In this document: piece by piece, positions 3,689 through 27,940 of the stretch
Position numbering within the stretch: position 1 is the stretch's first letter
Layout: each line of letters opens with the position of its first letter
DNA from: Vibrio penaeicida
GTDB taxonomy: Bacteria > Pseudomonadota > Gammaproteobacteria > Enterobacterales > Vibrionaceae
Assembly: GCF_002933855.1 (NCBI RefSeq)
Contig: NZ_BFAQ01000011.1
Coordinates: 29,442 to 61,441 of the forward strand
Reading direction: 5' to 3'
Length of the DNA stretch: 32,000 nucleotides
Program-made: the position numbers and the translations under genes
Notes under the pieces: generated by a model
What the model was told of the DNA's origin: nothing
Seen by the model: only the letters and a program-made list of their open reading frames with translations
Database searches by the model: none

Positions 3689-3691
3689 GTC

Positions 3692-5714: not shown

Positions 5715-6346
5715 TGTCTAGTGCAAAAGATATTAAAAAGAGTGTCTTAGCGCCAGTATTGGATAACAACCCAATCGCGCTTCAGGTACTTGGTGTGTGT
5801 TCTGCACTAGCAGTAACCACCAAACTAGAAACAGCGTTTGTAATGACTCTTGCGGTTATTTTCGTAACAGCACTGTCAAACTTCTTTGTTTCTTTGATCC
5901 GTAACCACATTCCAAACAGTGTTCGTATTATCGTACAGATGGCGATCATTGCTTCTTTGGTAATCGTGGTAGACCAAATCCTAAAAGCTTACTTATACGA
6001 TATCTCTAAGCAGCTATCTGTATTCGTTGGTCTGATCATTACAAACTGTATCGTAATGGGTCGTGCAGAAGCATTTGCTATGAAATCTGCACCTCTACCG
6101 TCTTTAATTGATGGTATTGGTAACGGTCTTGGTTACGGTTTTGTACTGATTACAGTTGGCTTCTTCCGCGAACTATTCGGTAGCGGCAAACTATTTGGTA
6201 TGGAAGTACTTCCGCTGGTAAGTAATGGCGGTTGGTATCAACCAAACGGTCTAATGCTTCTGGCACCATCTGCATTCTTCTTGATCGGTTTCCTAATCTG
6301 GGCGATCCGTGTGTTCAAGCCAGAACAAGTAGAAGCGAAGGAGTAA
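5714..6346 (+). CDS. nqrD: Na+-translocating NADH:quinone reductase subunit D
   Basis: 210 aa, multi-TM, NqrD sequence; TAATG overlap with nqrC. Confidence 0.97.
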
Positions 6347-6353
6347 GGTCGTC

Positions 6354-6950
6354 ATGGAACATTATATTAGTCTGCTAGTTAAATCGATTTTCATCGAAAA
6401 CATGGCACTGTCTTTCTTCTTGGGTATGTGTACATTCCTTGCGGTATCCAAGAAAGTTAAGACTTCTTTTGGCTTAGGTGTCGCTGTTGTCGTAGTACTT
6501 ACTATTGCAGTACCGGTAAACAACTTAGTTTACAACCTTGTGCTTAAAGAGAACGCTCTGGTTGAAGGTGTTGACCTGAGCTTCCTGAACTTCATTACCT
6601 TCATTGGTGTAATTGCAGCATTGGTACAGATTCTAGAGATGGTTTTAGACCGTTTCTTCCCGCCTCTGTACAACGCACTGGGTATTTTCCTTCCGCTGAT
6701 CACAGTTAACTGTGCAATCTTCGGTGGTGTATCTTTCATGGTGCAGCGTGATTACAACTTTGCTGAGTCCGTAGTTTACGGTTTCGGTTCTGGTGTAGGT
6801 TGGATGCTTGCTATCGTTGCGTTAGCAGGTATTCGTGAGAAGATGAAGTACTCAGACGTTCCTCCAGGTTTACGTGGTCTTGGTATCACATTTATCTCTG
6901 TAGGTCTGATGGCACTGGGCTTCATGTCATTCTCTGGTGTTCAACTGTAA
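6354..6950 (+). CDS. nqrE: Na+-translocating NADH:quinone reductase subunit E
   Basis: 198 aa, [37 protein letters not shown]. Confidence 0.97.
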
Positions 6951-6967
6951 GGCATAAGGAATAGTCA

Positions 6968-8191
6968 ATGGACATTATTCTTGGTGTAGTGATGTTTACA
7001 CTGATTGTTCTAGCCCTAGTTTTGGTTATTTTATTTGCCAAATCTAAGCTAGTACCAACAGGTGACATTACCATTTCCGTAAACGGCGATCCTGAAAAAG
7101 CGATCGTTTCTCAACCAGGTAGCAAGCTGCTAAGTTCTCTTGCTGGCGCTGGTGTATTCGTTTCATCTGCTTGTGGTGGCGGTGGCTCTTGTGGTCAGTG
7201 TCGTGTGAAAGTGAAATCTGGTGGTGGCGACATTCTACCAACAGAACTGGATCACATTACTAAAGGTGAAGCCCGTGAAGGTGAGCGTCTGGCTTGTCAG
7301 GTGGCAGTGAAAACTGACATGGACATCGAGCTTCCAGAAGAAATCTTCGGCGTTAAAAAGTGGGAATGTACGGTTATCTCTAACGATAACAAAGCGACAT
7401 TCATCAAAGAACTTAAGATTCAGATTCCTGATGGCGAGTCAGTACCTTTCCGTGCGGGTGGTTACATTCAAATCGAAGCGCCAGTTCACCACGTGAAATA
7501 CGCTGATTACGATATTCCTGACGAATACCGTGAAGACTGGGACAAGTTCAACCTGTTCCGCTATGAGTCTAAAGTTAACGAAGAAACCATTCGTGCTTAC
7601 TCAATGGCTAACTACCCTGAAGAAGAAGGTATTATTATGCTGAACGTGCGTATCGCTACGCCGCCGCCTAATAATCCTGATGTACCACCTGGTATCATGT
7701 CTTCGTACATCTGGTCTCTTAAAGAAGGTGACAAGTGTACGATCTCTGGTCCATTTGGTGAATTCTTCGCGAAAGATACAGATGCTGAAATGGTATTCGT
7801 TGGTGGTGGTGCCGGTATGGCGCCAATGCGTTCGCATATCTTCGATCAGCTTAAGCGTCTGAACTCTAGCCGTAAGATGTCATTCTGGTACGGTGCACGT
7901 TCTAAGCGTGAGATGTTCTACGTAGAAGACTTTGACGGTCTGCAATCTGAAAACGATAACTTCGTTTGGCACTGTGCTCTATCAGATCCAATGCCAGAAG
8001 ATAACTGGGAAGGTTACACAGGCTTCATCCACAACGTATTGTACGAAAACTACCTGAAGGACCATGATGCTCCTGAAGATTGTGAGTACTACATGTGTGG
8101 TCCACCGATGATGAATGCGGCTGTTATCGGCATGCTGAAAGATCTTGGTGTAGAAGACGAAAACATCCTATTGGATGACTTCGGTGGCTAA
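6968..8191 (+). CDS. nqrF: Na+-translocating NADH:quinone reductase subunit F
   Basis: 407 aa; 2Fe-2S motif [10 protein letters not shown] plus FAD/NADH oxidoreductase domain ([12 protein letters not shown]). Confidence 0.97.
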
Positions 8192-8213
8192 ACCCATCTA
8201 AGTAATTGATTTG

Positions 8214-8246
8214 TGGCTGACTCGTATGAGTCAGCCATTTATTTTT
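8214..8246 (+). terminator. Rho-independent terminator after nqrF
   Basis: tggctgactc-gtat-gagtcagcca perfect 10-bp stem followed by tttattttt. Confidence 0.9.
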
Positions 8247-8346
8247 GTAAATCAAGTTGCTATAGAACAGTATCCAGAACAACAAACGCTAAAGTATTGG
8301 GTATTTTTCTCTATCAACTTAAATAATTATAAGCAGGAGTGAGCAA

Positions 8347-9351
8347 GTGAAATACTGGCTTGTTGTCTTAACTTCCTTATTGTTTCTAGCTGGTTGCAGT
8401 CAGCCGAAAGAACAAATCCACTTATCCGGTCCTACTATGGGAACGACTTACAATATTAAATATATTGAGGTCGATGGTGCGCCAGCATCTGCCGATATTC
8501 AGAAAGAAGTCGATAAGTTACTGGAATTAGTGAATGACCAGATGTCGACGTATCGCAAGGATTCAGAGCTTAGTCGTTTTAACCAATACAAAGGTAACGA
8601 AGCATTTAAGGTGTCCGCTGAAACCGCAATCGTAGTGAAAGAAGCGATTCGCCTGAATGAGCTTACTCGTGGTGCATTGGATGTGACTGTTGGTCCTCTC
8701 GTTAATTTATGGGGCTTTGGACCAGAAGCTCGACCGGAAGTGGTGCCAAGTGATGAAGAACTAAGTGCTCGAAAAGCCATGACGGGAATATCATATTTAA
8801 GCGCGACTTCTACTACTCTGACAAAGACGCTGCCAGAGCTGTATGTTGACCTTTCTACCATTGCAAAAGGTTGGGGGGTAGATGTCGTTGCCAATTATGT
8901 TGAGTCGCTAGGCATTCACAATTACATGGTTGAAATTGGTGGTGAGATTCGCGTAAAAGGTGTTAATCAAAGCGAAGAAGCGTGGAGAATCGCCATTGAG
9001 AAACCTTCAACCACAGAGCGTGCGATTCAAGAAATTATTGAACCTGGTGACATGGCGATTGCTACTTCAGGGGATTACCGAAATTATTTTGAAAAGGATG
9101 GTATTCGATACTCGCATATTATCAATCCACAATCAGGAAAGCCGATCGATCATAAAGTGGTATCGGTTACGGTTCTTCACCCTTCTAGTATGACGGCCGA
9201 TGGCTTATCTACTGGTATTATGGTGTTAGGTGAAGACGCTGGTCTGGAAATCGCGAACGAAAATGACCTTGCCGTTATGATCATTGTAAAAACAGAGCAA
9301 GGGTTCGAAGAAATCTATTCAGACGCATTTAAGAAGTATTTAAATAAATAA
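8347..9351 (+). CDS. apbE: FAD:protein FMN transferase (lipoprotein)
   Basis: 334 aa; LFLAGC lipobox; GPTMGTTYNIKY, GxDVVAN and PEPGDMAIATSGDYRNYFEKDG-type ApbE motifs (here IIEPGDMAIATSGDYRNYF); located next to nqr. Confidence 0.95.
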   Translation: MKYWLVVLTSLLFLAGCSQPKEQIHLSGPTMGTTYNIKYIEVDGAPASADIQKEVDKLLELVNDQMSTYRKDSELSRFNQYKGNEAFKVSAETAIVVKEAIRLNELTRGALDVTVGPLVNLWGFGPEARPEVVPSDEELSARKAMTGISYLSATSTTLTKTLPELYVDLSTIAKGWGVDVVANYVESLGIHNYMVEIGGEIRVKGVNQSEEAWRIAIEKPSTTERAIQEIIEPGDMAIATSGDYRNYFEKDGIRYSHIINPQSGKPIDHKVVSVTVLHPSSMTADGLSTGIMVLGEDAGLEIANENDLAVMIIVKTEQGFEEIYSDAFKKYLNK

Positions 9352-9724: not shown

Positions 9725-10099
9725 TTAAATCGATGGGCTGGTTAGCGTAACGGAGTAGCGCCATGGTTTCCCGTTTTCAGTATTGATTTCCATGCTGGCA
9801 TTTTTACCATCGTTTGTACTCAGTGTCAGCGACGGCAGTTCTAATGAAGTTGGTCCACCTCTCTCATTACAAGTAACGTTGCCGGTGAGCTCTACATTAC
9901 CTAATGAATCTGGCGTTATCTTCGCGAGGAATTTGCATTCCCCCGATACCGCTGCTCCCCATTCATTCGCTTCTAGGAAAGCTTCAAAATATTGGCGCTG
10001 ACCTTGTCGTTCTAGCGTAATACATGCCTTGTAGTCAAAATTAGCAGCTGCTGGAAAGCTGGTAGTGACCAACAATAAACACGTCATCCGAATGTTCAT
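9725..10099 (-). CDS. Small secreted/periplasmic protein of unknown function, last gene of the candidate operon
   Basis: 124 aa with an N-terminal signal peptide (MNIRMTCLLLVTTSFPAAA); starts about 10 bp downstream of the AsmA-like gene. Confidence 0.7.
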   Translation of the reverse strand: MNIRMTCLLLVTTSFPAAANFDYKACITLERQGQRQYFEAFLEANEWGAAVSGECKFLAKITPDSLGNVELTGNVTCNERGGPTSLELPSLTLSTNDGKNASMEINTENGKPWRYSVTLTSPSI

Positions 10100-10108
10100 T
10101 CTTCACCT

Positions 10109-13100
10109 TTACTTCTTTATAGGGGTTCCGCGCGAAATCATTTCACACAGGTAGCTTCCATCGCTATCAAGCGGTTTTTCAACTAGCCAGCGAATCGGTG
10201 AAATAACTGGGCTGGTAGTGAATCGCACGGACGTTTCTAAGATCGCAGAAAACGGCACACTTAAGTCAAAGTCTTCAAAATTACCGGAAACTTCAATCGG
10301 TGTTTGAAGGCTAAATATCTGGGCTGATTTGGGTCTTGGCGCGAGATAAAGATCGAACGTTCTATCCGAGTAAGAAGCTGAAAAGTTACCATTTACTTGA
10401 ATACGCGTTGTGTCCAGTAACAAGTCCCGCTGCTGCAAATCACCATTTGTGATATCAAAGCCGCCTGCCACGCAATTTAGAACCGATTCCTGTTCCTTGG
10501 TAAAGCTAGGCAATATTGCATCGGTTAAATTGACGGCCCAAAGGTCGATTAAGTCCGCTTCAAACTCCTGTGGCCAAATAGAAAAACCAATAAACCCGTT
10601 AGCGTTATTCATGAGATTATCAGGAGTGTTGGCCAAACTGGTTAAATTAAAGTAAGTACTGAGATTTCCACCCATATCTGTCTTAGTATCGATACGTCTA
10701 GCGATAATACCGTAGTCAAAATGATGTACTTGCCCTTGAATAGCGATATCGAATTGGTCTTGTCGAGCTTCAATTTGCCCAGCCAAAGAAAAGGAGCCGC
10801 CAGGAATACTGATTTTTAATGGAGAGACACGTAATTTTCCATCCAATAGTGATAGCTTCGCGGATGTTGCGCCTAACCAATCATCACCTGAACGAACATT
10901 ACTTACCTCTATATCCATTTCTACGTTTGCCCATGATAAGCCTTCAGGGCTAACGACAAGTGGTTGTGTTGTGCTTTCTTCTACAGTTGGCTTGCGACTA
11001 GAGGTTTCTCGGTTAGCAGAATTCGGTATCCAAGCTTTCCAGTTGCCCACTTTAAAGTCGTCCATTTGAATCTGCGATGATGACAGGCTTAATACAATGT
11101 CAGGACGCGAATATTTCCCGAGTGGGCGGAATTGCCCAGTACCAATAAGCTCACTCTTACCGATATTGAGGACAAGTTGCTGTAATTGATATTGAACGTC
11201 ATCTAGCGATAACTTGGCCGATAAATCAATTGGACCATAAGGCGGAAGCTTGACCCCTGTGAACTCGTTAAGCCTATTTAAATTAGGAATAGCCGCGTTT
11301 AATTGGAGTTCCAATTGAGTGAAGTCCAGTGGTAGGGCAATGTCCGTTGAGGCTTCAATTTTTATATCACCAAGGGTAAAAAAGACATTAGCAGGTAAGC
11401 TTTCTGAAAGCCTATTGGCTTCTTTCAGAGAAACCGATTGGATGCTCAGTGTTGTTTTTTTATCCTGTACGGAGCCCGTCAGTAGCAGCTCGGTGTTGAG
11501 CTCCGGTCCGGTATGAAAATGCCCTTCCGAGATGTGAATGTCCATCGATTTTCCGGTATAGATATCCGGAACCTTGAGATACCCACCTTCAAGTAAAGCT
11601 TGTACTTGAGTCATCTCCATGAATTCAAGTAACGTTTTTCCTGAAAGTGATAAGCTTACTCGGGCACTATCTAATGCCATTTCCATGTCATCGGCGATGC
11701 CAAAGCTTTTAGCGATAGCAGCAATATTCGGTGAGTCAGCTTTAAGGTTAAGCGTTGAGGATATTTGAGCAGCGTTGATGCTAACAGCAAGATCGCCTGT
11801 CATTAGGTTGTCGGCGAGGCGCATTGAAAACGGCGCAGGTTTCATTATGCCGTTTCGAAGCTTACCCGAGAAGGTGATGTGTTTGAGGCTTTGATTTGAC
11901 CATCGCATATCACCGACATTTAGGTTGATATCCGCATCCACAATAGTAATGTCGTTACTCAAGATAGGAACGGAAAGGTTGACCCCTTGAGTTGGTATGG
12001 CTTGTTCTACTTCTGGTAACGTTTCTTCTTGTGCTAACAAGGCGAGTTGATTGAAATCCAATATAGAAAAATCAGCATCGATATCCACAAATGAGCGTTT
12101 AGGATCGTTTAACCATTTGAGTGCTAATGTCCCTTTGCTGTCCATAACACGAAGGTTTTGAGTGGAAAGTGTCAGCCACTCATTTTGATGTTCTAAGGTC
12201 GCATTGAGCTTTAGAGGTCCGCTAGCCCCTGACTGCGTACCTAACCAAGGTGAAAGTTTTGCGATATTCGGGCTCGATATGTCCAGCTTAAATTGGCTGC
12301 CAACTTGCCAGCGTGTTTCAGGGAGAGAGCCAAACGCGTGAATATTCAGTATTGGGCTGTCTAGTGTGATGGTCGTTTCCCAATCTCGCTTGTTGATGAT
12401 GTCTGACAGTGCCCCCGCTTTAGCTGTGATGGTAGCAGGCACACCTTGGAGGTTACCGCGAATATCGACATCGACTGGCTGGTTCATTCCTGCTTTAAAT
12501 CGCGCTTTCTCAATGGCATAGTTTGCACCTTCTGTCCAAGATATAGCGGCATTATCCAATGCAAAAGCGAGGCGACTGTTGTCTATCCATTCCTTAAGTT
12601 TGGTGCCTTCAGTTTGGACACTCAGTAACGCACTTTCAAGGTGACCATCTGCTTCTTCGATACCCGCCAGCCAATGAGCGAGTTCACCGAGTGGAGAGTC
12701 TTGGGCACCAAGCTCTATATTTAAAGTTGAAGACCATTCGGTTGCGTCAATTGATGCCTTCCCTCGGAAAGGAACTTGAGCGATATCGGCAGAAATGGGC
12801 GCGTTCAATGTTCCTTTCTCGCTTACGACGGCAAGAGATAGGTTTTTTATTTCTGTTCCAAGCCCTAATATTTCTCCTATAGAGACAGAAAGGTTGGTTT
12901 GGGTAGAGACCAGCCATTGATCAAGAGCTTGCTGCAGCGGGGACTTTTGCGGTGGTGCAGACGCATACCCCATCATTTGCTGTTCTGGCTCTGGTTGTAG
13001 CCAAGGCTTAAGATCGATCACAGGAATCGTGAGTTTGCCATCAATGGTGTTGACGTCACCAAGTGCAATGTCCAGATACCCTTCTGCTTGTGTGATAGGG

Positions 13101-14101
13101 CTATCCACGTTAAGCGACTTAATGTGCAGTGCGCCCTGTTTTGCCGATATGTCAGCGGAGATACTAAGTGGAGCTATATGATAGACATCGAGCCCCAGTA
13201 AGGCTTCAATAGGCTGTGTGTCGAGCCAGTCTAATTGGATGTTTGCCGTTGAAAGCGCTTTCCCGTTTGGTTGAATATTGGAATTGAATTCCAGAGAAGC
13301 GCCTGCGAAATGACCTTTGACGTCAAGAGAGCCTGTTTGGGCATTGAGGAGCTTTTCTATTTCTCCCGTGACACTCAGGTTGTATTCTTGACCTAATGCT
13401 GCCCCTTTGGTGTTGAGATGCCAAATTTTATCATCTTTGGTTAAATCAAATTCATCCAGAAACCAATCCACATAAGTTTGGGTATTCTGATCTTCGTAAA
13501 TCACACTTAAGCTTTTGGCTACGGCTTTCTCACCGAGTTTGACCGTCCAATGCGCTAGCTTGCTGTCTGAATTTAAGGGGCTATCTGAATTTAAACTGCT
13601 CTCTGAATTGTCGCTGCTTTCTGGTGCCACTCTGGTTACTTGGGGAGCAACAGATTCCGCCTGCTTTCCAATTGCCCAGTTTTCATTGCCATCCATATCT
13701 TTTGCTAGATAGAGATGGATCCCTTCCAAATCAATGTAATCAATGAATAGTGTGTTTTCGAATAAGGGGAATATCGCCACTTTTGCCGAAGCGTGCCCCA
13801 CACGCAGCAGCGGTTGCCACTCTATTGAAGGAATATTCGCGACTTCAATATTATTAATTTCCAACTCAGGCCTAAACGATACATGAAATCGGATATCGCC
13901 ATCAATTTTGACAGGTCGATTGATCTGGTTTTCGAGAATGCTGGATATTTTTGGCTTATGCGCCGTTAGGTTTATGTTGAACCCTACGGTAAGCGCGATA
14001 GCCAGTATTGCAATGAATGAAAGAAGGGTTATACCCAAATATTTCAAGGTTTGAAGCAGAACAAATGGCATTTTAGTTTTGGTGGCTGTTGGCGTATTCA
14101 T
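10109..14101 (-). CDS. AsmA-family protein (large, 1330 aa)
   Basis: Single N-terminal TM (TLLSFIAILAIALTVGF), AsmA N-terminal motif (RPVKIDGDIRFHVSFRPELEINNIEVANIPSIE) and typical C-terminal AsmA region (GDLQQRDLLLDTTRIQVNGNFSASYSDRTFDLYLAPRPKS). Confidence 0.88.
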   Translation of the reverse strand: MNTPTATKTKMPFVLLQTLKYLGITLLSFIAILAIALTVGFNINLTAHKPKISSILENQINRPVKIDGDIRFHVSFRPELEINNIEVANIPSIEWQPLLRVGHASAKVAIFPLFENTLFIDYIDLEGIHLYLAKDMDGNENWAIGKQAESVAPQVTRVAPESSDNSESSLNSDSPLNSDSKLAHWTVKLGEKAVAKSLSVIYEDQNTQTYVDWFLDEFDLTKDDKIWHLNTKGAALGQEYNLSVTGEIEKLLNAQTGSLDVKGHFAGASLEFNSNIQPNGKALSTANIQLDWLDTQPIEALLGLDVYHIAPLSISADISAKQGALHIKSLNVDSPITQAEGYLDIALGDVNTIDGKLTIPVIDLKPWLQPEPEQQMMGYASAPPQKSPLQQALDQWLVSTQTNLSVSIGEILGLGTEIKNLSLAVVSEKGTLNAPISADIAQVPFRGKASIDATEWSSTLNIELGAQDSPLGELAHWLAGIEEADGHLESALLSVQTEGTKLKEWIDNSRLAFALDNAAISWTEGANYAIEKARFKAGMNQPVDVDIRGNLQGVPATITAKAGALSDIINKRDWETTITLDSPILNIHAFGSLPETRWQVGSQFKLDISSPNIAKLSPWLGTQSGASGPLKLNATLEHQNEWLTLSTQNLRVMDSKGTLALKWLNDPKRSFVDIDADFSILDFNQLALLAQEETLPEVEQAIPTQGVNLSVPILSNDITIVDADINLNVGDMRWSNQSLKHITFSGKLRNGIMKPAPFSMRLADNLMTGDLAVSINAAQISSTLNLKADSPNIAAIAKSFGIADDMEMALDSARVSLSLSGKTLLEFMEMTQVQALLEGGYLKVPDIYTGKSMDIHISEGHFHTGPELNTELLLTGSVQDKKTTLSIQSVSLKEANRLSESLPANVFFTLGDIKIEASTDIALPLDFTQLELQLNAAIPNLNRLNEFTGVKLPPYGPIDLSAKLSLDDVQYQLQQLVLNIGKSELIGTGQFRPLGKYSRPDIVLSLSSSQIQMDDFKVGNWKAWIPNSANRETSSRKPTVEESTTQPLVVSPEGLSWANVEMDIEVSNVRSGDDWLGATSAKLSLLDGKLRVSPLKISIPGGSFSLAGQIEARQDQFDIAIQGQVHHFDYGIIARRIDTKTDMGGNLSTYFNLTSLANTPDNLMNNANGFIGFSIWPQEFEADLIDLWAVNLTDAILPSFTKEQESVLNCVAGGFDITNGDLQQRDLLLDTTRIQVNGNFSASYSDRTFDLYLAPRPKSAQIFSLQTPIEVSGNFEDFDLSVPFSAILETSVRFTTSPVISPIRWLVEKPLDSDGSYLCEMISRGTPIKK
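13564..13617. repeat. Three imperfect in-frame 18-bp tandem units inside the AsmA-like gene
   Basis: ctgtctgaatttaagggg / ctatctgaatttaaactg / ctctctgaattgtcgctg; encodes NSESSLNSDSPLNSDSK. Confidence 0.7.
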
Positions 14102-14205: not shown

Positions 14206-14850
14206 CTAGTGCCGAGTACTTCGTTTTATGTAGATGCTTACGCGACGATTGGCTTTTCTTTGAGCTGCGAGTTCCACTGTATCTGATATTGTTGGGTAGG
14301 TATCTGCGTACGCGACAGCACTCAGTTTTGTCTTGTCGATAGACAAGGAAATCAGCTGTTTTGTTACGCCTATTGCTCTTGCACCGGAAAGCTCCCAGTT
14401 GCTATCGAAATGGTCGTTATGAATAGGTAAGTCATCTGTATGACCTTCGACGACAATTTCCTTTCCCTCCAAACTTGTACGTTCTATAGACGACGCAAAA
14501 ATTGTCAACAGCCGAACGCCTTCATTGCTTAACTTTGCGGAACCTTCTTCGTAAAGTGCTTCTGTGTCGAAATCCACTTTAATTCCATCAGGCATTTTCG
14601 TTAAGGAGATAGGCTCATGCTCAGTCGATTGCTTTAGGGCTTGAATGAGCAGGGTCATTGGCATCTCGGCTTTTCGATCCGATAGCGCGTTCCAACTGGC
14701 TTTCAGCTCTTCAAACTTTCCTTGGTCGATTTGAGAAGTGGCGAGAATAACGATGAAGAAAGTCATCAAAAGTGTAATGAAATCACTGTACGTTACTAGC
14801 CAGTCATTTTCTTCTCGGACATCGGCACCACTCTGTCTTCTGCGCGGCAT
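14206..14850 (-). CDS. MotB-like stator protein with OmpA/MotB peptidoglycan-binding domain
   Basis: 214 aa; TM with conserved ion-binding Asp context NDWLVTYSDFITLLMTFF (D23), and EGHTDDLPI...SNWELSGARA...NRRVSIYI OmpA-C/MotB motif. Confidence 0.93.
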   Translation of the reverse strand: MPRRRQSGADVREENDWLVTYSDFITLLMTFFIVILATSQIDQGKFEELKASWNALSDRKAEMPMTLLIQALKQSTEHEPISLTKMPDGIKVDFDTEALYEEGSAKLSNEGVRLLTIFASSIERTSLEGKEIVVEGHTDDLPIHNDHFDSNWELSGARAIGVTKQLISLSIDKTKLSAVAYADTYPTISDTVELAAQRKANRRVSIYIKRSTRH

Positions 14851-14852
14851 AA

Positions 14853-15632
14853 TTAGGACTCCAGCCTTTTCTTGGGAGAGAGATAGCTGTTCATCGAGTC
14901 TTTGATGTGCATATCAGGTTGCTTTTCCGTCATCATCACAAAGGCTTGGATCTGCATATCTCGATGGCGAAAATTGTCGTCAGATTTACGCCTAACATTG
15001 ATCGCAGAAGGCTTGAACAAAGCCTGAGCAAGTAGAGTGCCGTATAACGTTGTAAGTAGGGCAATCGCCAGCCCTTTCCCCATGGTAGCCATGTCACCAT
15101 CTAAGCTATCCAGCATAACAATCAACCCAACCAGTGTGCCTATCATGCCAAATGCAGGAGAGAAATTTGCCATAGTACTCAACACATTGGCGGGTTGTGC
15201 TTCTTGCACTCGCTGGCTTTCGTTACTTTCATCAAGCAAATTACGAAGTGCCTTCCCTTTGTAGCCTGTGCCCAGTAACTCTATGGCCATTGCAATGAAA
15301 GGGTCTTTTAACTCTTTATTTGTTAAGGTTTTTTCCAAGCCAGTAATTCCTTCGGTGCGATACACCTTGTTCCATTCTAATGAGCGAATGATAGAAGAGT
15401 GCTTCAGTTTGGTTTCATTCCTACCATCAAATAAGCTTGCAATAACCGCTTGAATGGCTTTAAAGAAAAGAGGGTAAGAGTAGCTAATTAGGGCTGCAGT
15501 TGACGTTCCTCCTGCAACAATCAGAAAGCTGGATAAGCTAACAAATAGCCAATAATTATCGGTGCTTGAAACCACAGCGGTAGTCAAGACAGCGGCAGAA
15601 AACAGCCATCCCGTAATGGTACTCAAAGACAT
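14853..15632 (-). CDS. MotA/PomA-like stator protein
   Basis: 259 aa; PAFGMIGTLVGLIVMLDSL...MGKGLAIALLTTLYGTLLAQALFKP is the TM3-TM4 signature of MotA/PomA; upstream TM pair and cytoplasmic loop present. Confidence 0.93.
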   Translation of the reverse strand: MSLSTITGWLFSAAVLTTAVVSSTDNYWLFVSLSSFLIVAGGTSTAALISYSYPLFFKAIQAVIASLFDGRNETKLKHSSIIRSLEWNKVYRTEGITGLEKTLTNKELKDPFIAMAIELLGTGYKGKALRNLLDESNESQRVQEAQPANVLSTMANFSPAFGMIGTLVGLIVMLDSLDGDMATMGKGLAIALLTTLYGTLLAQALFKPSAINVRRKSDDNFRHRDMQIQAFVMMTEKQPDMHIKDSMNSYLSPKKRLES

Positions 15633-17467
15633 TAGGCTAGTTCCTCCAGCTCACTCATTTTAAACTTATTTTCTTCTAACGCTTGACGCATGACCCTAAC
15701 AATATCTTGCTTGGCAGCGTTTCTATCGTTTTCGTTGACGTCCGTTGCCATCTCTAATTCACTGATTACCATATTGACGTAGCGGTTTGGACAGCCTGAA
15801 ATCAGCGCTTTTACGCGTTCCACTGGCATATCTGAAAAGGCGTTAGCAAGTGTTTGAGCATCAAGATTTCGGATATGATTGCTAATGATTTGTGTCGGTG
15901 TTCGCCAAATGTCATCAAAGCTATAAAAACGTTGTTTTAGCTGCACATAAGCACCCGGAGACGTTTCTTTTAACTGGGTTAATAGGTCGTTTTGTTTGGT
16001 GATACTTAACCCATCGAGGATTTGAGTCAAAACGAAAGGACCATCAGTAGGTAGCGTTCTAAAGTCTGGAACGGTTTGAGCTTTCGTCGCCAACGAAGAA
16101 GCAACATCATTAAAGGTTGCCATAGGAAGAGTGTCTAACCGAGCAATTTCCATCGCCAATTCAGCCTGACGTTCCATTGGGTATAGAGAAAGCAGCGCTG
16201 CAGAATTCTCTGAAGAAAGTTGGCTAATCACCATAGCCTGTATACGCTCAGGCTCGTGCTCCAACAGCCAGCGGATTTGGTTGATGGACAGGGTCTCAAG
16301 AAAATCAAATGGTTGTGACTTTCGGGTTGAGTGTGCGTGAGGGTTTGAGTCGACAAGGAGCTGCTTGAATGCAGAAACGTGCTTTACGACTTGCTCGCGA
16401 TCATTTGGGTTTTGCTCCAAATAGCTTACATAGCTAGGTATCTGAGAAGTCAGGCTAGGGTACATAGTGGTGAACATCGCTCTCCCAAGCTCTTGATATA
16501 CGCAAGCAAACATAGGCAGATTTTGTTCGTTTAGGCTGAGTTTTCTGATGGTCTGATCGACTTGATGAGGCTCGCCTAAGCTGAATTTGACTAATTCTTG
16601 GCGACACGCCTCGTGTTCATAATACTGATGGGAAACTAAGGGCTCGGCTTGCAATGAGGAAGCAGGCTGAACATCGTTTACAGTATCGTTGTTTGGTCCT
16701 GCAGAGCGTGCGCGAAGCAGCATGACGATAAGAGTAATTATCACCAAGCCAAGCGCAATGAGCGTTAGCCAAAAGTAATCTAGCCAAAATACTTTCTCCT
16801 GAATTTGAGTGCTGTCTTTGTTGGGAACCTCAAATACGGTGCGGATGATGTCCAGCGAATCGCCTCTAAGTGGGTTGTAATCCACTTTTTGAATCAGAAG
16901 TTTTTTTAGGAGCTGTACGTTTTCGCTGCTCACCTTTTCGTCCAGCAATAGTGTTACGGACAACTTGTTGATTTCAGTAGAGAGAGGTTTGGCTTCCCTT
17001 TGGTTTTTGCTGATGTTAGCCGTTGGGTTGGGTGCCGGCGTATTTTGCTGGGGGGGAGGCGCTGGCTGAGCCATGGTCTGAACTGGAATCTCAATGTTCT
17101 CTTTGGCGGGCATGCCGCTTAATCCAGGCAGTTTAGGGACGAATTCAGCTACTCTTCGAACAGGTGCTGCAATGGTTGTCGTTCTTTGAGGGGCTCCAGT
17201 TTGATCGGCTTTAGTTTCGGGTGTTTTGGCTGCAGATGCATTAGCTACAGGTACGTTGATTCCCGAATTCTCCTTTTGTACGAACTCCGATTGAATGGTC
17301 AAGACATGCTTGTTGGGTCCTATGATACGTTCAATATCGTCATTTATGCGCGCTTCTAATCTCGCAGAGAATTCAAGCGCTTGGATCTCACTGGATGATT
17401 GCGCAAGGCTAAAGCTAGATATACAAAAAGGCAGAATAAAGGCAAGTTTAACTAATGGGTTCATCAT
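15632..17467 (-). CDS. FliF C-terminal-like / FliG-like fusion membrane protein
   Basis: About 611-616 aa (ORF track start 17482; the 17467 ATG gives a TAATG overlap with the upstream gene). Signal peptide; FliF ring-domain-like halves LEARINDDIERIIGPNKHVLTIQSEF and INKLSVTLLLD...LLIQKVDYNPLRGDSLDIIRTVFE; TM WLTLIALGLVIITLIVMLL; FliG-middle-like WLLEHEPERIQAMVISQLSSENSAALLSLYPMERQAELAMEIARLD; FliG-C-like FYSFDDIWRTPTQIISNHIRNLDAQTLANAFSDMPVERVKALISGCPNRYVNMVISELEMATDVNENDRNAAKQDIVRVMRQALEE. Confidence 0.82.
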   Translation of the reverse strand: MMNPLVKLAFILPFCISSFSLAQSSSEIQALEFSARLEARINDDIERIIGPNKHVLTIQSEFVQKENSGINVPVANASAAKTPETKADQTGAPQRTTTIAAPVRRVAEFVPKLPGLSGMPAKENIEIPVQTMAQPAPPPQQNTPAPNPTANISKNQREAKPLSTEINKLSVTLLLDEKVSSENVQLLKKLLIQKVDYNPLRGDSLDIIRTVFEVPNKDSTQIQEKVFWLDYFWLTLIALGLVIITLIVMLLRARSAGPNNDTVNDVQPASSLQAEPLVSHQYYEHEACRQELVKFSLGEPHQVDQTIRKLSLNEQNLPMFACVYQELGRAMFTTMYPSLTSQIPSYVSYLEQNPNDREQVVKHVSAFKQLLVDSNPHAHSTRKSQPFDFLETLSINQIRWLLEHEPERIQAMVISQLSSENSAALLSLYPMERQAELAMEIARLDTLPMATFNDVASSLATKAQTVPDFRTLPTDGPFVLTQILDGLSITKQNDLLTQLKETSPGAYVQLKQRFYSFDDIWRTPTQIISNHIRNLDAQTLANAFSDMPVERVKALISGCPNRYVNMVISELEMATDVNENDRNAAKQDIVRVMRQALEENKFKMSELEELA

Positions 17468-18054
17468 TATTTTTCCAGCCATTTCATCATTCGTTTTACT
17501 TCAGGGAGCTCAGGGTTGTGCTTCAACGCTTGTTGCCAAGCAATGATGGCATCTTCTACTTTGCCCAGTTTGTAAAGAACACTCCCCTTTGTCGCAAGAA
17601 TGTTTTCTGGCGTTTCTGTTAGTGGTTGAGCTTGTTCAAGTAGAGTCAGTGCGGCATTAAAATCGCCTTTCACTGCATTTTCTTGAGCTTCTAATTTGAG
17701 TGCGAGTGACCTCGCTTCATTGAATGGAGATACAGGTTCCTCCCCATTTTCTTCTTGAGAAGGTGCGGCATCTTCAGTTTGTGGGGCAGTTTCCTCAGGA
17801 AGAGGAAATGCTGACTCTTCCTGAGACACGGTTGTGTAAGTGGGCTCAGCACTGTCTGTCTCGATGGTTAACACCATATCCGGATCAGACAAATCAAATT
17901 GCACACCTGATTCATACTGGTTGCCCTGCATGTGTATGGTTATTTTTCCATCTTTCATTGCAACTCGTTGTCGAGTTTCTGATTGAGATGCTGATTCAGC
18001 CCAAGCTGGATTTGTCAGCAAAAATAGACAAGCACAAAGGATCGTATTCTTCAT
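17467..18054 (-). CDS. Secreted/periplasmic TPR-repeat protein
   Basis: 195 aa; signal peptide MKNTILCACLFLLTNPAWA; C-terminal TPR (ALTLLEQAQPLTETPENILATKGSVLYKLGKVEDAIIAWQQALKHNPELPEV). Confidence 0.8.
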   Translation of the reverse strand: MKNTILCACLFLLTNPAWAESASQSETRQRVAMKDGKITIHMQGNQYESGVQFDLSDPDMVLTIETDSAEPTYTTVSQEESAFPLPEETAPQTEDAAPSQEENGEEPVSPFNEARSLALKLEAQENAVKGDFNAALTLLEQAQPLTETPENILATKGSVLYKLGKVEDAIIAWQQALKHNPELPEVKRMMKWLEK

Positions 18055-18057
18055 GGA

Positions 18058-19083
18058 TTAAAACCTCACGCCTAACGTTAGATCGAACGCAGGGTTGCCG
18101 CCCCATGTGCCGTTTTCAAAGGTGTCTTTGCTGATGTACATCAAACCGAGATCGACAAAAATATCCCCTTGAGTAAAGAAGGCATTTCGTGGTGGTGACA
18201 ATTCTAGCCCTGCACGTACGGCGATTTTTTGTTTGTTCTCAACAAACTGAAAGCCCGAACCCGCGTAAACAGATAACCAGTCATCGGTAATCGCATACAG
18301 TGCTCTAGCTTCTGCTCCAAAGCCTTGAATCGAAAAATTTGTACTGCCGTCAAAGTTGCGAAAATAGTTGCCGATAAAGGCAAAGTGAGCGCGTTCTGAT
18401 GGGGTGTGCCCGCTGTAGTAGCGTATAGAAAGGTCCGTTACATTTTGTATGTCTTCGCCATCAGTTGAGGTACCATTGATACCAATGTAACCAAGAGCGA
18501 CTCCGACTCCGCTCTCCTTTACATTCTTCTTTGCGAGCACATCCGGATCCTCCTTTATGTCGAAGTTTCCCGTCCATACCACTTCGTTATTTTGAGTGCT
18601 AACTAGTGACATAGTGATGTTGTGAGTATTGTCGCTAAGAGGCGAACGCCAGGTTAGGAAGGCGTCGACACGTATTTTCTTTCCGAGCTTACGCAGTTCA
18701 TCATTACTTGAAAGCCCATGCTTAAACTTTACGTTGGAGGCAGAGAGGTTGACTTGTGTTTTTCCACATTCGATACAGCTGCGTACTTTGATCCCATTGT
18801 TTTTCATTTTGGCAGTTAGGATCGATGTCAGCTTGAGCAGCTCGGTTTTTTCTTCATCCGTTACGGCTTTACCCTCGAAATACAAGGCGACACTTTGGAT
18901 CTTAGCTAAAGACTTGTTGTCTAAAATGTCGAACCAAAGATCATCGTGTTCTAAGAATTCTTCAACTGTTTGTGCTTCATTATCTTTTGCGGAGAAAAGT
19001 GCATTTAAAGGTTTGGAAAAAACAATCGAAGAGTAAGAAATTAAAAGGGTGCTAATGGTTAGAGTCGTGACTTTTTTCCACAT
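18058..19083 (-). CDS. Outer-membrane protein with N-terminal CsgG/FlgO/TolB-N-like domain and C-terminal beta-barrel-like region
   Basis: 341 aa; signal peptide; SVALYFEGKAVTDEEKTELLKLTSILTAKMKNNGIKVRS...LGKKIRVDAFLTWRSPLSDNTHNITMSLVSTQNNEVVWTGNF; C-terminal alternating beta-strand region ending in aromatic LTLGVRF. Confidence 0.65.
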   Translation of the reverse strand: MWKKVTTLTISTLLISYSSIVFSKPLNALFSAKDNEAQTVEEFLEHDDLWFDILDNKSLAKIQSVALYFEGKAVTDEEKTELLKLTSILTAKMKNNGIKVRSCIECGKTQVNLSASNVKFKHGLSSNDELRKLGKKIRVDAFLTWRSPLSDNTHNITMSLVSTQNNEVVWTGNFDIKEDPDVLAKKNVKESGVGVALGYIGINGTSTDGEDIQNVTDLSIRYYSGHTPSERAHFAFIGNYFRNFDGSTNFSIQGFGAEARALYAITDDWLSVYAGSGFQFVENKQKIAVRAGLELSPPRNAFFTQGDIFVDLGLMYISKDTFENGTWGGNPAFDLTLGVRF

Positions 19084-19347: not shown

Positions 19348-20571
19348 TTAGCGAGCAACGAGGCGGTTTCGACCTTCTTCTTTTGCTTGATACAACAGAT
19401 CGTCAGCATCCCGAATAATTTCTTCTAGGTTTTGCTCTTCATTGCCAGAGCTAACACCAATACTCACTGTGAGATGAATTTGTAAATCTTCGTATTGAAC
19501 AGCCGTTTTCTCTATTCGTTGGCGCATCTTGTCTAGGCGACTTTGGAATTCTTGATAATCCCCACAGTGTTGAATACAGAACTCTTCACCACCAAATCTC
19601 ACCGCAATTTCATTTTTGAAGTAGATGGATATAATTTGCGCCACAGTAACCAGTGCTCTGTCGCCGCCATCATGACCATAGGTATCATTCACTTTCTTAA
19701 AGAAGTCGATATCAATCATGGCGATATTGCGATTGTCACAACATTTATTGTTGTTCTCACCGAACAAGTAGCGACGATTCCAAAGACCAGTTAACGCATC
19801 TTGGTTAGCGATGCGATAAAGCTCGTCGGTGGCGTCTTTCATATCCAGAATGTGTTGAACTCGACAATAGAATTCTTCTTGGTTGAAAGGCTTATAAAGG
19901 AAATCGTTAGCACCAGCTTTTAGAAATCGCGCCGTCATCGTGCGGTCGTTATTGCCAGACAGGCCCAGAATAGCCAAATGATTTCGATCATACTGATTTC
20001 TAATTTCTCTGGTCATAGTAATGCCGTCTTTATTCGGCATGTCATGATCGGTAATTATCATAGTGATGTCTGGGTTTTCCGCTAAAATATCAATAGCTTG
20101 CTGCCCATCATTTGCTTGCAAGGTATCAATGTACTGATGCTCAAGGAGATACACTACATGGTTTCTAACGGTAATTGAGTCATCGACAACCAATGCTTTG
20201 TGTGTATGGTTCGCCATCAATCGCTTTAGAAGTGGGATCAAATAGGATACAGAAGCGCTACTGTCTTTGGTGATGTAATCGAGTACACCTTTAGCAATAA
20301 CATGTTCACGGACGTTTTCATTAAACTGAGCGGTGAGAACAATCGCACGAACTTTATGCGATAAAACGAGATCGATAATTTCCCCGTCTGGACCGTCGGG
20401 TAAGCAATAATCCAATACAGCGCATAGAAAGTTAGTATCTTGTCTTATTATGTTATTTGCCGCTTCTAACGACTCCGCTAAGACAACTTCAAAACCAATT
20501 TGCTTAAGCTGCGAGTTAAGGTAATTACGAAAGGCTCGACTATCCTCGACAACCAAAATCCGATTTAGCAC
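19348..20571 (-). CDS. Two-receiver-domain GGDEF response regulator (putative diguanylate cyclase)
   Basis: 407 aa; two REC domains (ILVVEDS...VLDYCLPDG; ALVVDDS...IITDHDMPNKDG) and GGDEF domain with RFGGEEF. Confidence 0.93.
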   Translation of the reverse strand: MLNRILVVEDSRAFRNYLNSQLKQIGFEVVLAESLEAANNIIRQDTNFLCAVLDYCLPDGPDGEIIDLVLSHKVRAIVLTAQFNENVREHVIAKGVLDYITKDSSASVSYLIPLLKRLMANHTHKALVVDDSITVRNHVVYLLEHQYIDTLQANDGQQAIDILAENPDITMIITDHDMPNKDGITMTREIRNQYDRNHLAILGLSGNNDRTMTARFLKAGANDFLYKPFNQEEFYCRVQHILDMKDATDELYRIANQDALTGLWNRRYLFGENNNKCCDNRNIAMIDIDFFKKVNDTYGHDGGDRALVTVAQIISIYFKNEIAVRFGGEEFCIQHCGDYQEFQSRLDKMRQRIEKTAVQYEDLQIHLTVSIGVSSGNEEQNLEEIIRDADDLLYQAKEEGRNRLVAR

Positions 20572-25396: not shown

Positions 25397-27940
25397 TTAT
25401 TGCCCCGCATTCAGTTGGTCTAATTTATTACCTACAGGTACTGAGAAGTTGAAGCCATCGTGTTGGTCCCAGTTAATAGACCATGTCATCACGCCACCAA
25501 AACTTGGATACAGCTTAGCAGGCACAACCGTGCTGCATTTCGTGCCTTTAATTAAGCAGTCGAGCGCATCATAGATGTTTTGGACTGGAGCTTGACCAGA
25601 GTTAGCACTGCTAGGACCAGATGGTAAACCAATGGCTACCTGATCGTCACGTAACGGAGCGAACTGAGTACCATCAGCCAGTTTAAACCCTTCAACGAGC
25701 ATTTTTGCTGACGCTACCATCATATCAACGGAACCTTCAGGGGCAGCACCTGGCATGTATGGGTTAGGCAAACCACCATTGTTGTATAGCTGAACATGAA
25801 GCAAGTCTAGTGTGTCACGAACTTGGTCAATCACTGGAATGTAAGCACCCCAAATACCAGTGTACGCGATCATTCCTCCTTGAACATATGGGTGCTCAGG
25901 TGCCATTGTTAGGTACATATCACCACCAGTATTCGCTTCTATCGCTTTAAGAGCACGACCTAAACGAGCCTGTATTTGAGAGCCATGTAATAGGTTTGAA
26001 CCACTTTCTAAGTCAACGTCCAACCCGTCGAAGCCCCACTCTTTGATGATGCTTGTTAAGCTGTTCACAAAGTTGGTTTCATCTTGGTCAGTGTTTAAGG
26101 TAATTGTCCCTTCAGCACCGCCTAAAGACAGAACAAAGATTTTCCCTTTGGCTTGCAGCGCTGCCATATCTTGCTTGAACTGAGCTGGATCGAGTGCAGG
26201 GCAAGAACTGTGGATATCACCTGAATACAAGTTGAAGTGAACAGTACCGTCGCTGTTACGATCGTTATCTGCAAACGCAATGTCAATAATATCCCAACGC
26301 TCAGACATATCAGCCAAACGAAGTGGACAGCCTGAACCGTTCACAAAATTATGCCAGTAACCAATAAGGTTATGTTTCTTGGCGACTTGCTCAACCGCAT
26401 TAACAGTAACACCGGATGAAACCGCGCTGTTTCCAGAGGAATCTTTGGCAATAACAGTTAGGGTGTAGTTACCGATTGCAGCAGGTGTCCAATTTACGCT
26501 GTAAGGTGCAGTAGTGTCCGATGAAATAACAGAGCCATTAACCAAGAAATCAACGCTTTGAACTGTACCTGTTAAGCTGGTTGCGTCCGCGCTGATTGCC
26601 GTTGATTTACCGACGCCAACGGTACTTCCGTTTGCGGGAGAAGTGAGTCGGGTAACAACGGGTTGGTCACTCACGGTAACCAAAGCACTTGCTTCGCCTG
26701 TTGAGCCACCGTTATCAGTGGCGATGGCTTTCACCGTGGTTTCACCTACGGCCGTTGCTTGCCAATTAACGGTGTATGGTGCTTGAGTATCAATACCTAA
26801 ACTGGTGTTGTTTGCAAAGAATTCAACTTGCGTTACGTTTCCGTCTGCATCACTCGCTTGCGCATTTACCGTTACGGTTGAGCCAGCGAGAATAACATCA
26901 CCAGTAGAAGGTGCTGTTAAGGTGACTTCTGGGGCTGCACTGCATGCACCTAACCCAGTCCATGCTTCTTTCCAGTATTCACCCACTCCCGGTTCGTATG
27001 CCCACGCTGAGTTGGATGAACACCAACCAGCAACGTCACAACGGTATTTCTGGTTAGCATTTTCGACCAACGCACCTGCGCTGTATGCAGTGCCTGCAAC
27101 ATAAGGCGTAGCATCAGCACAACCACCAGAGGACGCCGACTTCACATTCACAGATACCTCTTGGCTAGCTGTTGAAAGGTTGTCGTTATCTGTTGCCTTA
27201 GCAGAAACAGTATGAGCACCAGCTTGAGCTGTCCAGTTATGTTCAAATGGCGCTGCTGTGTCTGTCGCAACAAGGTTGCTGTCCACATAGAATTCGACTT
27301 GTGTAACTGTGCCATCGGTATCTGCTGCATTAGCGGATAGAGTCAGTACGTCACCTTGAGTGACAGATTCAGAACCTGTTGGGGATGTTAGGTCGATACT
27401 TGGTGCCACCAATCCACCTGCCGGCGCTACCTGTATTAGAACTGTTGATTCGTTCGTTGCGCCTAAGTTGTCGGTCGCAATAGCAGAAATGGTATGGTTG
27501 CCTGTTTCCGTCGTCCAATCTAGCGTGTAAGGCGCGGCTGTTGTTACGCCCAAACTTACACCAGACAAGAAAAACTCGACTTGCGCGATGCTGCCATCAA
27601 TGTCGGAGGCGTTCACTTGTAAACCAATGACTTGGCCCGTTGTTAGCTGAGCATTGTTGAGTGGCGATGTAATGCTCACTTCAGGAGATGCGTTGAAACC
27701 ACCACACGCACCTAGCCATTTCCATTCTTGCCAATCACCAGAGTGAGTTGCTGGCGAGTTCCCCTGCGACCACCATCTTGCCTGATACGCGTTGTTATCT
27801 TGTTGAACCTTTCCGTCCGTAGAGTAGGCGCCATCTGGCTGCCAAACTGGCAGTGTTCTACAATCGACCGTTGCCGCTTGAACAGCACTGGTCAAGCTTA
27901 AAGCGGACAGTATTGCACCGCTGATAATTGTCCTTTTCAT
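25397..27940 (-). CDS. Secreted multidomain GH18 chitinase with CBM5/12-type and Ig-like domains
   Basis: ORF 25397..27997; likely start MKRTIISG at 27940 with upstream gggagaag RBS. GH18 catalytic motif DGLDVDLES; chitin-binding-like WQPDGAYSTDGKVQQDNNAYQARWWSQGNSP and AYSAGALVENANQKYRCDVAGWC; repeated Ig-like domains (DTAAPYTLNWTT...-type). Confidence 0.92.
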   Translation of the reverse strand: MKRTIISGAILSALSLTSAVQAATVDCRTLPVWQPDGAYSTDGKVQQDNNAYQARWWSQGNSPATHSGDWQEWKWLGACGGFNASPEVSITSPLNNAQLTTGQVIGLQVNASDIDGSIAQVEFFLSGVSLGVTTAAPYTLDWTTETGNHTISAIATDNLGATNESTVLIQVAPAGGLVAPSIDLTSPTGSESVTQGDVLTLSANAADTDGTVTQVEFYVDSNLVATDTAAPFEHNWTAQAGAHTVSAKATDNDNLSTASQEVSVNVKSASSGGCADATPYVAGTAYSAGALVENANQKYRCDVAGWCSSNSAWAYEPGVGEYWKEAWTGLGACSAAPEVTLTAPSTGDVILAGSTVTVNAQASDADGNVTQVEFFANNTSLGIDTQAPYTVNWQATAVGETTVKAIATDNGGSTGEASALVTVSDQPVVTRLTSPANGSTVGVGKSTAISADATSLTGTVQSVDFLVNGSVISSDTTAPYSVNWTPAAIGNYTLTVIAKDSSGNSAVSSGVTVNAVEQVAKKHNLIGYWHNFVNGSGCPLRLADMSERWDIIDIAFADNDRNSDGTVHFNLYSGDIHSSCPALDPAQFKQDMAALQAKGKIFVLSLGGAEGTITLNTDQDETNFVNSLTSIIKEWGFDGLDVDLESGSNLLHGSQIQARLGRALKAIEANTGGDMYLTMAPEHPYVQGGMIAYTGIWGAYIPVIDQVRDTLDLLHVQLYNNGGLPNPYMPGAAPEGSVDMMVASAKMLVEGFKLADGTQFAPLRDDQVAIGLPSGPSSANSGQAPVQNIYDALDCLIKGTKCSTVVPAKLYPSFGGVMTWSINWDQHDGFNFSVPVGNKLDQLNAGQ

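Follow-up and report, generated by a model that had tools for sequence, protein, structure and literature searches.

Does the rotor of the bacterial flagellum, together with a stator to drive it, exist anywhere as a machine of its own, apart from the flagellum? FliG is the torque-receiving protein of the flagellum, where it works with FliF, FliM/N, the export gate, and the rod. The question is raised by a stretch of 32,000 nucleotides (nt) from Vibrio penaeicida (assembly GCF_002933855.1, contig NZ_BFAQ01000011.1, positions 29,442 to 61,441; hereafter the window), in which a single open reading frame (ORF) joins a FliF-like periplasmic part to a FliG-like cytoplasmic part. A sequence-only reading of the window had described this ORF as a natural chimera of FliF and FliG, located outside any flagellar cluster, and knew of no named system built in this way. 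Judged by sequence profiles and predicted structure, the gene naturally joins, in frame, the C-terminal half of FliF (the third ring-building domain, RBM3; the second transmembrane (TM) helix, TM2; and the FliG-binding tail) to a complete FliG. It is the third of five tightly packed genes on the same strand, and the two genes directly downstream, which the earlier reading did not mention, are motA and motB. We put at roughly 55% the probability that this cassette encodes a flagellum-independent rotor ring driven by its own dedicated stator; the formation of the ring, its rotation, the roles of the partner proteins, and the output of the machine are what we infer.

Structure of the fusion gene

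The fusion gene occupies positions 15632 to 17482 of the window on the minus strand, as do all other features of the window described here unless the plus strand is stated. The ORF encodes 616 amino acids (aa), contains every sequence string quoted in the sequence-only reading, and is the basis of all residue numbers given below. The true start is probably M6, an ATG at position 17467 that yields a protein of 611 aa. This start is favored because it forms a TAATG overlap with the upstream gene, which encodes a tetratricopeptide repeat (TPR) protein, and because it agrees with the matching 611-aa NCBI entry from V. penaeicida, annotated only as a 'FliG C-terminal domain-containing protein'. TAATG stop/start overlaps were found at both junctions of the fusion gene, at 17467 with the TPR gene and at 15632 with the start of motA, and we therefore expect its translation to be coupled to that of its neighbors.

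The overall layout first proposed (a signal peptide, a split periplasmic domain, a single TM helix, and cytoplasmic FliG-like domains) was upheld by Pfam, profile searches of the PDB, hhalign, and AlphaFold models searched with Foldseek. A Sec-type signal peptide (residues 6-27; 17402 to 17467) could be read from the sequence, with predicted cleavage between SFSLA and QSS. It stands where FliF has TM1, RBM1, and RBM2, and a Pfam scan of the fusion protein found no match to PF01514, the SctJ-like family that covers this region of FliF. The gene probably originated when adjacent fliF and fliG genes were joined in frame and the 5' half of fliF, which encodes TM1, RBM1, and RBM2, was lost.

The periplasmic part resembles RBM3 of FliF

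The periplasmic part consists of two halves separated by an insert. The first half of RBM3 (17273 to 17398) comprises a helix at residues 30-54 and a strand at residues 59-70, as placed by an AlphaFold2 model (predicted local distance difference test, pLDDT, of 92-98), Foldseek, and alignment of hidden Markov models (HMMs). The insert, rich in Pro, Ala, and Thr (residues 71-167; 16982 to 17272), sits at the position of the FliF beta-collar and is predicted to be a low-confidence coil. At its center lies an LPGLSG motif (17114 to 17131), the L-P-G of which is 94-97% conserved and pairs with the G-V-P-G collar motif of FliF. The second half of RBM3 (16835 to 16981) includes a strand (168-181), a helix (186-199), an RGD motif (206-208), and a further strand (209-215). 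The single TM helix (16709 to 16789) aligned with TM2 of FliF and is its predicted counterpart.

By Pfam, YscJ_FliF_C narrowly missed its cut-off of 23.8 bits on the full protein (23.0) and exceeded it, at 26.9 bits, when residues 29-262 were scanned alone. Profile searches of the PDB matched Salmonella FliF at E 2.7e-5; the best three PDB matches to a profile of the N-terminal 260 residues were all FliF, with an alignment that ran from residue 228 of the Salmonella protein, the start of RBM3, through TM2. An HMM built from 143 family sequences scored 55.7 bits on a genuine FliF carrying both PF01514 and PF08345, covering FliF residues 251-550 of 552. That alignment spans RBM3, the collar region, the RGD, and TM2, and extends with moderate confidence to the C-terminal FliG-binding helix. 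The G-D of the motif (G207-D208) is 98% conserved and aligned with the RGD of FliF.

AlphaFold2, given residues 29-262 and an 80-sequence alignment, predicted the helices and strands of RBM3 and the TM helix with pLDDT of 92-98, in the order alpha-beta, insert, beta-alpha-beta; residues 71-167 were modeled with low confidence. When this model was compared with the PDB by Foldseek, as the earlier reading had suggested, the top 18 matches were all to FliF RBM3 or the S-ring (E 3e-5 to 4e-4), and the 19th stood at E 0.06. The proposal that FliF RBM3, split at its collar, is represented by the two periplasmic halves and the insert was thus borne out by both the family HMM and the predicted fold.

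Across the family the insert is rich in Pro, Glu, Leu, and Ala and highly variable in length. The two arms that flank the LPG nevertheless co-vary (10-72 and 12-91 aa; Pearson r 0.88, Spearman 0.90, n=136), in a correlation computed across related members and uncorrected for phylogeny. The covariation fits a symmetric, out-and-back stalk or hairpin with the LPG at its tip.

The cytoplasmic part resembles a complete FliG

Two helices at residues 283-316 (16535 to 16636) follow the TM helix and aligned, at moderate posterior confidence, with the C-terminal FliG-binding helix of FliF: ELVKFSLGEPHQVDQTIRKL in the fusion protein is paired with ELVAEDPNLAARILHQW in FliF, and P305 is 79% conserved. 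Beyond this predicted tail, a FliG_N-like domain at residues 319-385 (16328 to 16528) was recognized by domain-wise hhalign and by Foldseek. It is succeeded by the FliG middle domain (16058 to 16312), which Pfam FliG_M matched at residues 402-472 with 51.6 bits (cut-off 25), and by the FliG C-terminal domain (15644 to 16042), which FliG_C matched at 503-607 with 52.1 bits (cut-off 23.3).

A profile of the close family matched FliG structures in the PDB at E 2.5e-26. In hhalign against a small FliG alignment, residues 323-613 of the fusion protein corresponded to FliG 11-330 (probability 99.9, E 6e-36), so that the FliG middle and C-terminal domains claimed earlier were substantiated and could be extended by the FliG_N-like domain. 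The full-length AlphaFold model reached pLDDT of 70-88 in the cytoplasmic part, its PDB matches were to FliG and FliF only, and its Foldseek alignments to full-length FliG ran over 320-332 columns. By domain-wise hhalign, the stretch that links the TM helix to FliG_M was closest to FliG_N (probability 97.7, E 1.7e-12), ahead of FliG_M (3.5e-5) and FliG_C, which also fared worse, and the M region of the family matched FliG_M at 8e-27. Because the region preceding M matches FliG_N best, we take the cytoplasmic part to be a complete FliG, with N, M, and C in order. Pfam matches to FliG_N, obtained for 64 of 80 family members, were dropped as evidence, being mostly cross-hits on the M domain.

The fusion protein is not simply a FliG. 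It scored 55.4 bits on the NCBIfam FliG equivalog TIGR00207, far below the cut-off of 226.7, and is membrane-anchored and 611-616 aa long, whereas FliG is soluble, separate, and about 335 aa long. Conservation was assessed over 143 members. F392 and F394 of the PFxFL motif, E410, and G481 are near-invariant (92-99%), and F522 is kept in 87%. In the FliM-binding motif EHPQR, only the Glu is retained (E410, 92%); H, P, and Q give way to various residues across the family, and all three are lacking in the V. penaeicida protein. This loss fits a motor without a switch. In the torque helix (15749 to 15790), R567 corresponds to R281 and E575 to D289 of Escherichia coli FliG; position 567 is R or K in 87% of members, position 575 E or D in 55%, and position 574 D or E in 26%.

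The five-gene cassette

The gene order of the cassette is FlgO-like protein, TPR protein, fusion protein, MotA, and MotB. The sequence-only reading had placed the gene outside any flagellar cluster and had listed FliM, FliN, and the export gate as absent. No such gene, nor any other flagellar gene, was found in the 32-kb window; the fusion gene is, however, no orphan, since it sits in a conserved cassette with MotA and MotB.

The stator genes lie downstream. MotA, a MotA/PomA-type A subunit (14853 to 15632), was closest in the PDB to Clostridium sporogenes MotA and Vibrio PomA; residues equivalent to R88 and E96 of PomA are retained in it. MotB, the B subunit (14206 to 14850), has a plug, a TM helix with the Asp (YSDFITLL, read from the sequence), and an OmpA-like peptidoglycan-binding domain. 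The Pfam matches in the pair were MotA_ExbB, MotB_plug, and OmpA, and all NCBIfam equivalog scores for MotA and MotB fell under their cut-offs.

Upstream of the fusion gene lie two genes for secreted proteins. The nearer (17467 to 18054) encodes 195 aa, in which a small domain at the N-terminus precedes TPR repeats at the C-terminus, and accompanied the fusion gene in every context examined. The farther (18058 to 19083) encodes a putative outer-membrane partner of 341 aa, with an N-terminal domain bearing a conserved C-x-E-C pair and a beta-barrel-like C-terminal region ending in F. PF17680, the FlgO profile, matched three of six homologues of this protein over the same segment of about 45 residues (E 8.5e-4, 6e-3, and 4e-2, all under the 22.6-bit cut-off); the window's own copy gave no PF17680 match, nor any significant match in sequence and profile searches of the PDB. 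The C-x-E-C pair (CIECGK) falls at residues ~100-110, where Val 100 and the Glu are invariant in a five-sequence alignment and both Cys are missing from the fifth homologue, from Bacteroidota. In a secreted protein, such a pair suggests a periplasmic disulfide or metal site.

Ten genomic contexts of the fusion gene were sampled. The cassette with MotA and MotB was found in eight of them, from Vibrionaceae, Shewanellaceae, Saccharospirillaceae, a Bacteroidota metagenome-assembled genome (MAG), and two unclassified metagenome contigs. Beyond V. penaeicida, all five genes were present in Aliivibrio fischeri, a Shewanellaceae MAG, an unclassified metagenome contig, and a Saccharospirillaceae MAG, and the Bacteroidota contig carries the five in altered order. 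One further, rearranged MAG has the TPR, motA, motB, and fusion genes; a counterpart of the 341-aa protein was not recognized there.

In a second subtype (P0069; and P0011, from a Bacteriovoracaceae MAG), the fusion gene is accompanied by a TPR gene and a gene for a putative outer-membrane barrel of about 210 aa, and no motAB pair adjoins it (loci L017, 6197-9535, and L003/L013, 2630-6120). One of these ~210-aa genes matched an outer-membrane beta-barrel profile at E 5e-4. Members of this subtype either have a stator encoded elsewhere or work without one. At L003, a gene for a VWA-domain protein adjoins the subtype genes.

Between two V. penaeicida strains, the ratio of non-synonymous to synonymous substitution rates (dN/dS) was 0.20 for the fusion gene and 0.05-0.39 for the other four genes: the cassette is under purifying selection. 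In the intergenic region upstream of the cassette, a scan for sigma-70 promoters and terminators and a search for the sigma-54 pattern returned nothing above chance.

Family size and distribution

In an exhaustive profile search, 193 clusters (50% identity) had a representative that matched at E<=1e-30. Of the 150 best matches, about 136 share the same build: 520-800 aa, an N-terminal hydrophobic segment, a periplasmic domain of 150-250 aa, a single TM helix, and FliG, most with RGD (or KGD) shortly ahead of the TM helix. Word-indexed searches had pointed to a tiny family confined to Vibrio (14-16 proteins), which the exhaustive search exposed as an artefact of sensitivity. Members with a named host are those of V. 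penaeicida, V. nigripulchritudo, V. agarivorans, Vibrio sp. SCSIO 43136, A. fischeri, A. logei, and A. finisterrensis; others come from MAGs of Shewanellaceae, Saccharospirillaceae/Pseudomonadales, and Bacteriovoracaceae. The contig of one member was assigned to Bacteroidota, as its neighboring genes share 90%-identity clusters with proteins of Bacteroidota MAGs. A tblastn search of plasmids gave no match.

NCBIfam holds no dedicated model for these proteins, and Pfam scans returned no family-specific one. In the open-access literature we found no description of the fusion family or its cassette, and an earlier description elsewhere is possible. The Bacteroidota are generally regarded as a non-flagellated phylum. 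The cassette is spread over many bacteria, including at least one member of such a phylum, and we therefore favor a hitherto undescribed rotor-stator machine that operates in the absence of a flagellum.

Published experiments on the cassette stator

In Vibrio fischeri ES114, the cassette stator is motA2 (VF_A0186) and motB2 (VF_A0187) (PMC3948606). Insertion mutants in motA2 and motB2 swam normally in soft agar, the genes were not activated by FlrA, and motA1B1 was essential for motility (PMC3948606). As judged by these orthologues, the cassette stator is not required for flagellar rotation (PMC3948606). In a separate study, motA2 and motB2 dropped about 2-fold, along with flagellar genes, when RscS was overexpressed (PMC10804989). 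The fusion gene immediately upstream is, by position, presumably VF_A0185, which is discussed in neither paper (PMC3948606, PMC10804989).

Comparison with known systems

The closest likeness is to the core of the flagellar MS/C-ring with its MotAB/PomAB stator. Common to both are the split RBM3, the RGD, TM2, the FliG-binding tail, the N, M, and C domains of FliG, and the torque-helix Arg; on the stator side, the cassette MotA has the R and E charges, and the cassette MotB has the plug, the Asp, and the OmpA-like domain. The differences lie in what is missing. Where flagella use separate FliF and FliG proteins, the fusion is one polypeptide without TM1, RBM1, or RBM2, and it would therefore offer no housing for an export gate. 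Unlike a flagellar gene set, the cassette has no FliM/N, rod, hook, or export genes, and its EHPQR site is degenerate. In place of the FliF collar, the fusion family has a Pro-rich hairpin of variable length.

A natural FliF-FliG fusion has been published for Chlamydiaceae, and the earlier statement on named systems has to be qualified in that one respect; the chlamydial fusion is built differently. The chlamydial protein likewise combines a FliF-like periplasmic RBM with a FliG-like cytoplasmic domain in the absence of a complete flagellum. It is about 330 aa long and has a pair of TM helices, RBM2 together with another RBM, and only FliG_M (Bergeron 2016, PMC4768692); it has no SpoIIIAG-like RBM3 and is linked to injectisome components rather than to MotAB (PMC4768692). 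On this published description, the present family is set apart by its RBM3 as sole ring-building domain, single TM helix, full FliG, and dedicated stator.

Laboratory fusions of FliF to FliG, made in Salmonella and Vibrio alginolyticus, assemble into rings (PMC6079021, PMC10941966, PMC11481574). In these, as in the natural protein, the C-terminus of FliF is covalently joined to the N-terminus of FliG; the assembly of the laboratory fusions into rings shows that such a fused topology permits a rotor. The laboratory constructs keep full-length FliF and work inside a complete flagellum, whereas the natural family is truncated and stands alone.

The secreted proteins invite comparison with the MotX/MotY T-ring, the FlgO/FlgP/FlgT H-ring, and PflA/PflB, since the cassette encodes a TPR-type and a weakly FlgO-like secreted protein beside its stator. 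FlgO is a component of the Vibrio H-ring (bioRxiv 10.1101/358820). Compared with FlgO, the 341-aa protein carries an extra, barrel-like C-terminal region, and neither MotY, FlgT, nor FlgP was detected.

A proposed rotor-stator machine and its alternatives

The mechanism that we propose starts from the domain identities, the conserved cassette, its purifying selection, the retained rotor and stator charges, the lost FliM site, and a stator dispensable for swimming in one host. It would run as follows: subunits of the fusion protein would oligomerize through RBM3 into an inner-membrane ring with a built-in FliG torque ring. A co-transcribed stator of the MotA5B2 type, its MotB anchored to peptidoglycan, would push on the torque helix of FliG_C, such that ion flow would turn the ring. 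MotX/PflB and the H-ring suggest, by analogy, that the TPR and FlgO-like proteins may serve as scaffolds or partners in the periplasm or at the outer membrane. The candidate for the output or contact surface would be the ring's crown of hairpins, variable in length and tipped by LPG. With no export gate, rod, or switch, and with a degenerate FliM site, the machine would be independent of the flagellum.

A more ambitious version of this model is offered tentatively, at odds we consider short of even: a self-contained rotary nanomachine that spans the envelope, in which a homo-oligomeric FliF(RBM3)-FliG ring, spun by its own MotAB, would be coupled via its crown of LPG-tipped hairpins to the TPR protein and the FlgO-like outer-membrane barrel. 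Such a machine might derive by exaptation from a rotor-stator module that existed apart from type III export, or be a relative of that module that has survived.

Several observations weigh against a rotor ring driven by a dedicated stator. Two of the sampled contexts (L017 and L013), both of distant members, are without an adjacent motAB; the acidic residue of the torque helix is kept in only 55% of members; and no output component, whether a shaft, an adhesin, or a secretion pore, could be identified. The ring itself is a further concern, since RBM3 would have to form it alone, without RBM1 and RBM2. The insert was modeled as disordered, with no beta-collar in the AlphaFold monomer, and the matched lengths of its arms may in part reflect the relatedness of the 136 members compared. 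The likeness of the 341-aa protein to FlgO lies below threshold (E 8.5e-4 to 4e-2). Finally, the Bacteroidota host is counted as non-flagellated from general knowledge of its phylum and not from its own genome.

The main rival is a complex that does not rotate. In this explanation, which we regard as possible but distinctly less probable, FliF-FliG would form a static platform in the envelope, and MotAB would act on it as ExbBD and TolQR act on TonB and TolA, with ion flow driving conformational pulling or signaling toward the TPR and outer-membrane partners instead of turning a ring continuously. The lack of a shaft or output part would then be expected, the Pro-rich periplasmic hairpin of variable length recalls the spacer logic of TonB and TolA, the outer-membrane beta-barrel partner is kept even where motAB is not adjacent, and two-component or GGDEF regulators often adjoin the cassette. 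The stator, however, carries a plug and belongs with flagellar MotA/PomA rather than with ExbB/TolQ, RBM3 is a ring-building module, and the whole of FliG is retained, including the armadillo (ARM) elements that act between subunits.

We consider it unlikely that the cassette is an accessory of the flagellum, serving as an alternative rotor/stator set or as a stator sink under particular conditions. The Vibrio and Aliivibrio hosts are flagellated, the cassette MotA is nearest to flagellar stators, and motA2 and motB2 fell with the flagellar genes, about 2-fold, on RscS overexpression (PMC10804989). These points must be set against the normal swimming of motA2B2 mutants and the position of the genes outside the FlrA regulon (PMC3948606), against the presence of the cassette in a Bacteroidota MAG, and against the fusion protein itself, which has neither RBM1/2, the housing of the export gate, nor the FliM-binding motif.

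That the cassette is the functionless, decaying remnant of a flagellar system since lost is very improbable, an explanation that conservation has largely refuted. Non-motile species are known to carry remnant rotor genes (PMC12199754), but dN/dS is 0.05-0.39 across the cassette, near-invariant motifs persist in about 140 divergent members, and the same five genes are kept, in changed order, across phyla. An anti-phage defense resembling Zorya, with its MotAB-type motor, was rejected as a scarcely credible explanation, because PADLOC gave only cross-hits of the cassette MotB to its ZorB models, with no match to ZorA, no ZorC/D-like genes, no PADLOC model for the other cassette proteins, a MotA of flagellar type, and no plasmid matches.

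Neighboring genes

The cassette lies within a block of eight genes, from a 124-aa ORF to a GGDEF gene, located between apbE and dinB; the block may be an insertion relative to other vibrios. After motB, across a gap of 104 nt, comes a gene for a 1330-aa protein of the AsmA family (10109 to 14101), and it is followed by the 124-aa ORF (9725 to 10099), which has no family match. AsmA-like proteins bridge the inner and outer membranes, and a lineage-specific functional link to the envelope is therefore possible. On the other side, 264 nt upstream of the cassette, a REC-REC-GGDEF response regulator is encoded (19348 to 20571); its best NCBIfam match was CbrR, whose cut-off of 600 bits it missed with a score of 243. 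These three genes flank the cassette only in V. penaeicida (including strain 6E01) and V. nigripulchritudo. They are absent from Aliivibrio and from the other loci examined, and were left out as core parts of the system.

Other hosts have other neighbors. OmpR-type two-component pairs are encoded just upstream of the cassette at two loci (L001 and L016). On the Bacteroidota contig (L015, 13073-14620), genes for a DUF5723 protein of 515 aa and a protein of 425 aa follow the cassette on its strand and may encode partners specific to that lineage.

Elsewhere in the window, beyond the AsmA-like gene and the 124-aa ORF, is a complete nqrABCDEF-apbE operon (2336 to 9351, plus strand) for the Na+-translocating NADH:quinone oxidoreductase. 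The window otherwise holds dinB, a RecQ-like helicase gene, and other unrelated genes. Among these is one for a secreted protein of 866 aa (25397 to 27997), which combines four Ig-like Big_7 domains with a chitinase-like GH18 domain and is unrelated to the fusion.

Implications for a possible flagellar rotor outside the flagellum

What is new here is a large, conserved, and unnamed family that places ring-building and torque-receiving parts in one polypeptide, with a private stator and no axial, switch, or export part. There is a substantial chance that it represents a new, non-flagellar use of the flagellar rotor. In a published survey, rotor proteins were present in 11% of non-motile species, and other functions were raised as a possibility (PMC12199754); the family could account for some of the 'orphan' rotor and stator genes in such genomes. 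For V. fischeri, the fusion cassette provides a context for the unexplained motA2B2 (PMC3948606). If our reading is correct, the rotor-stator module of the flagellum would be able to function as a separate unit, and one rotor gene with two stator genes would make up a minimal natural system for generating torque. The cassette would then offer a possible new route by which ion-motive energy reaches the periplasm or outer membrane, and the idea that rotation and type III export were assembled as independent modules would become directly testable.

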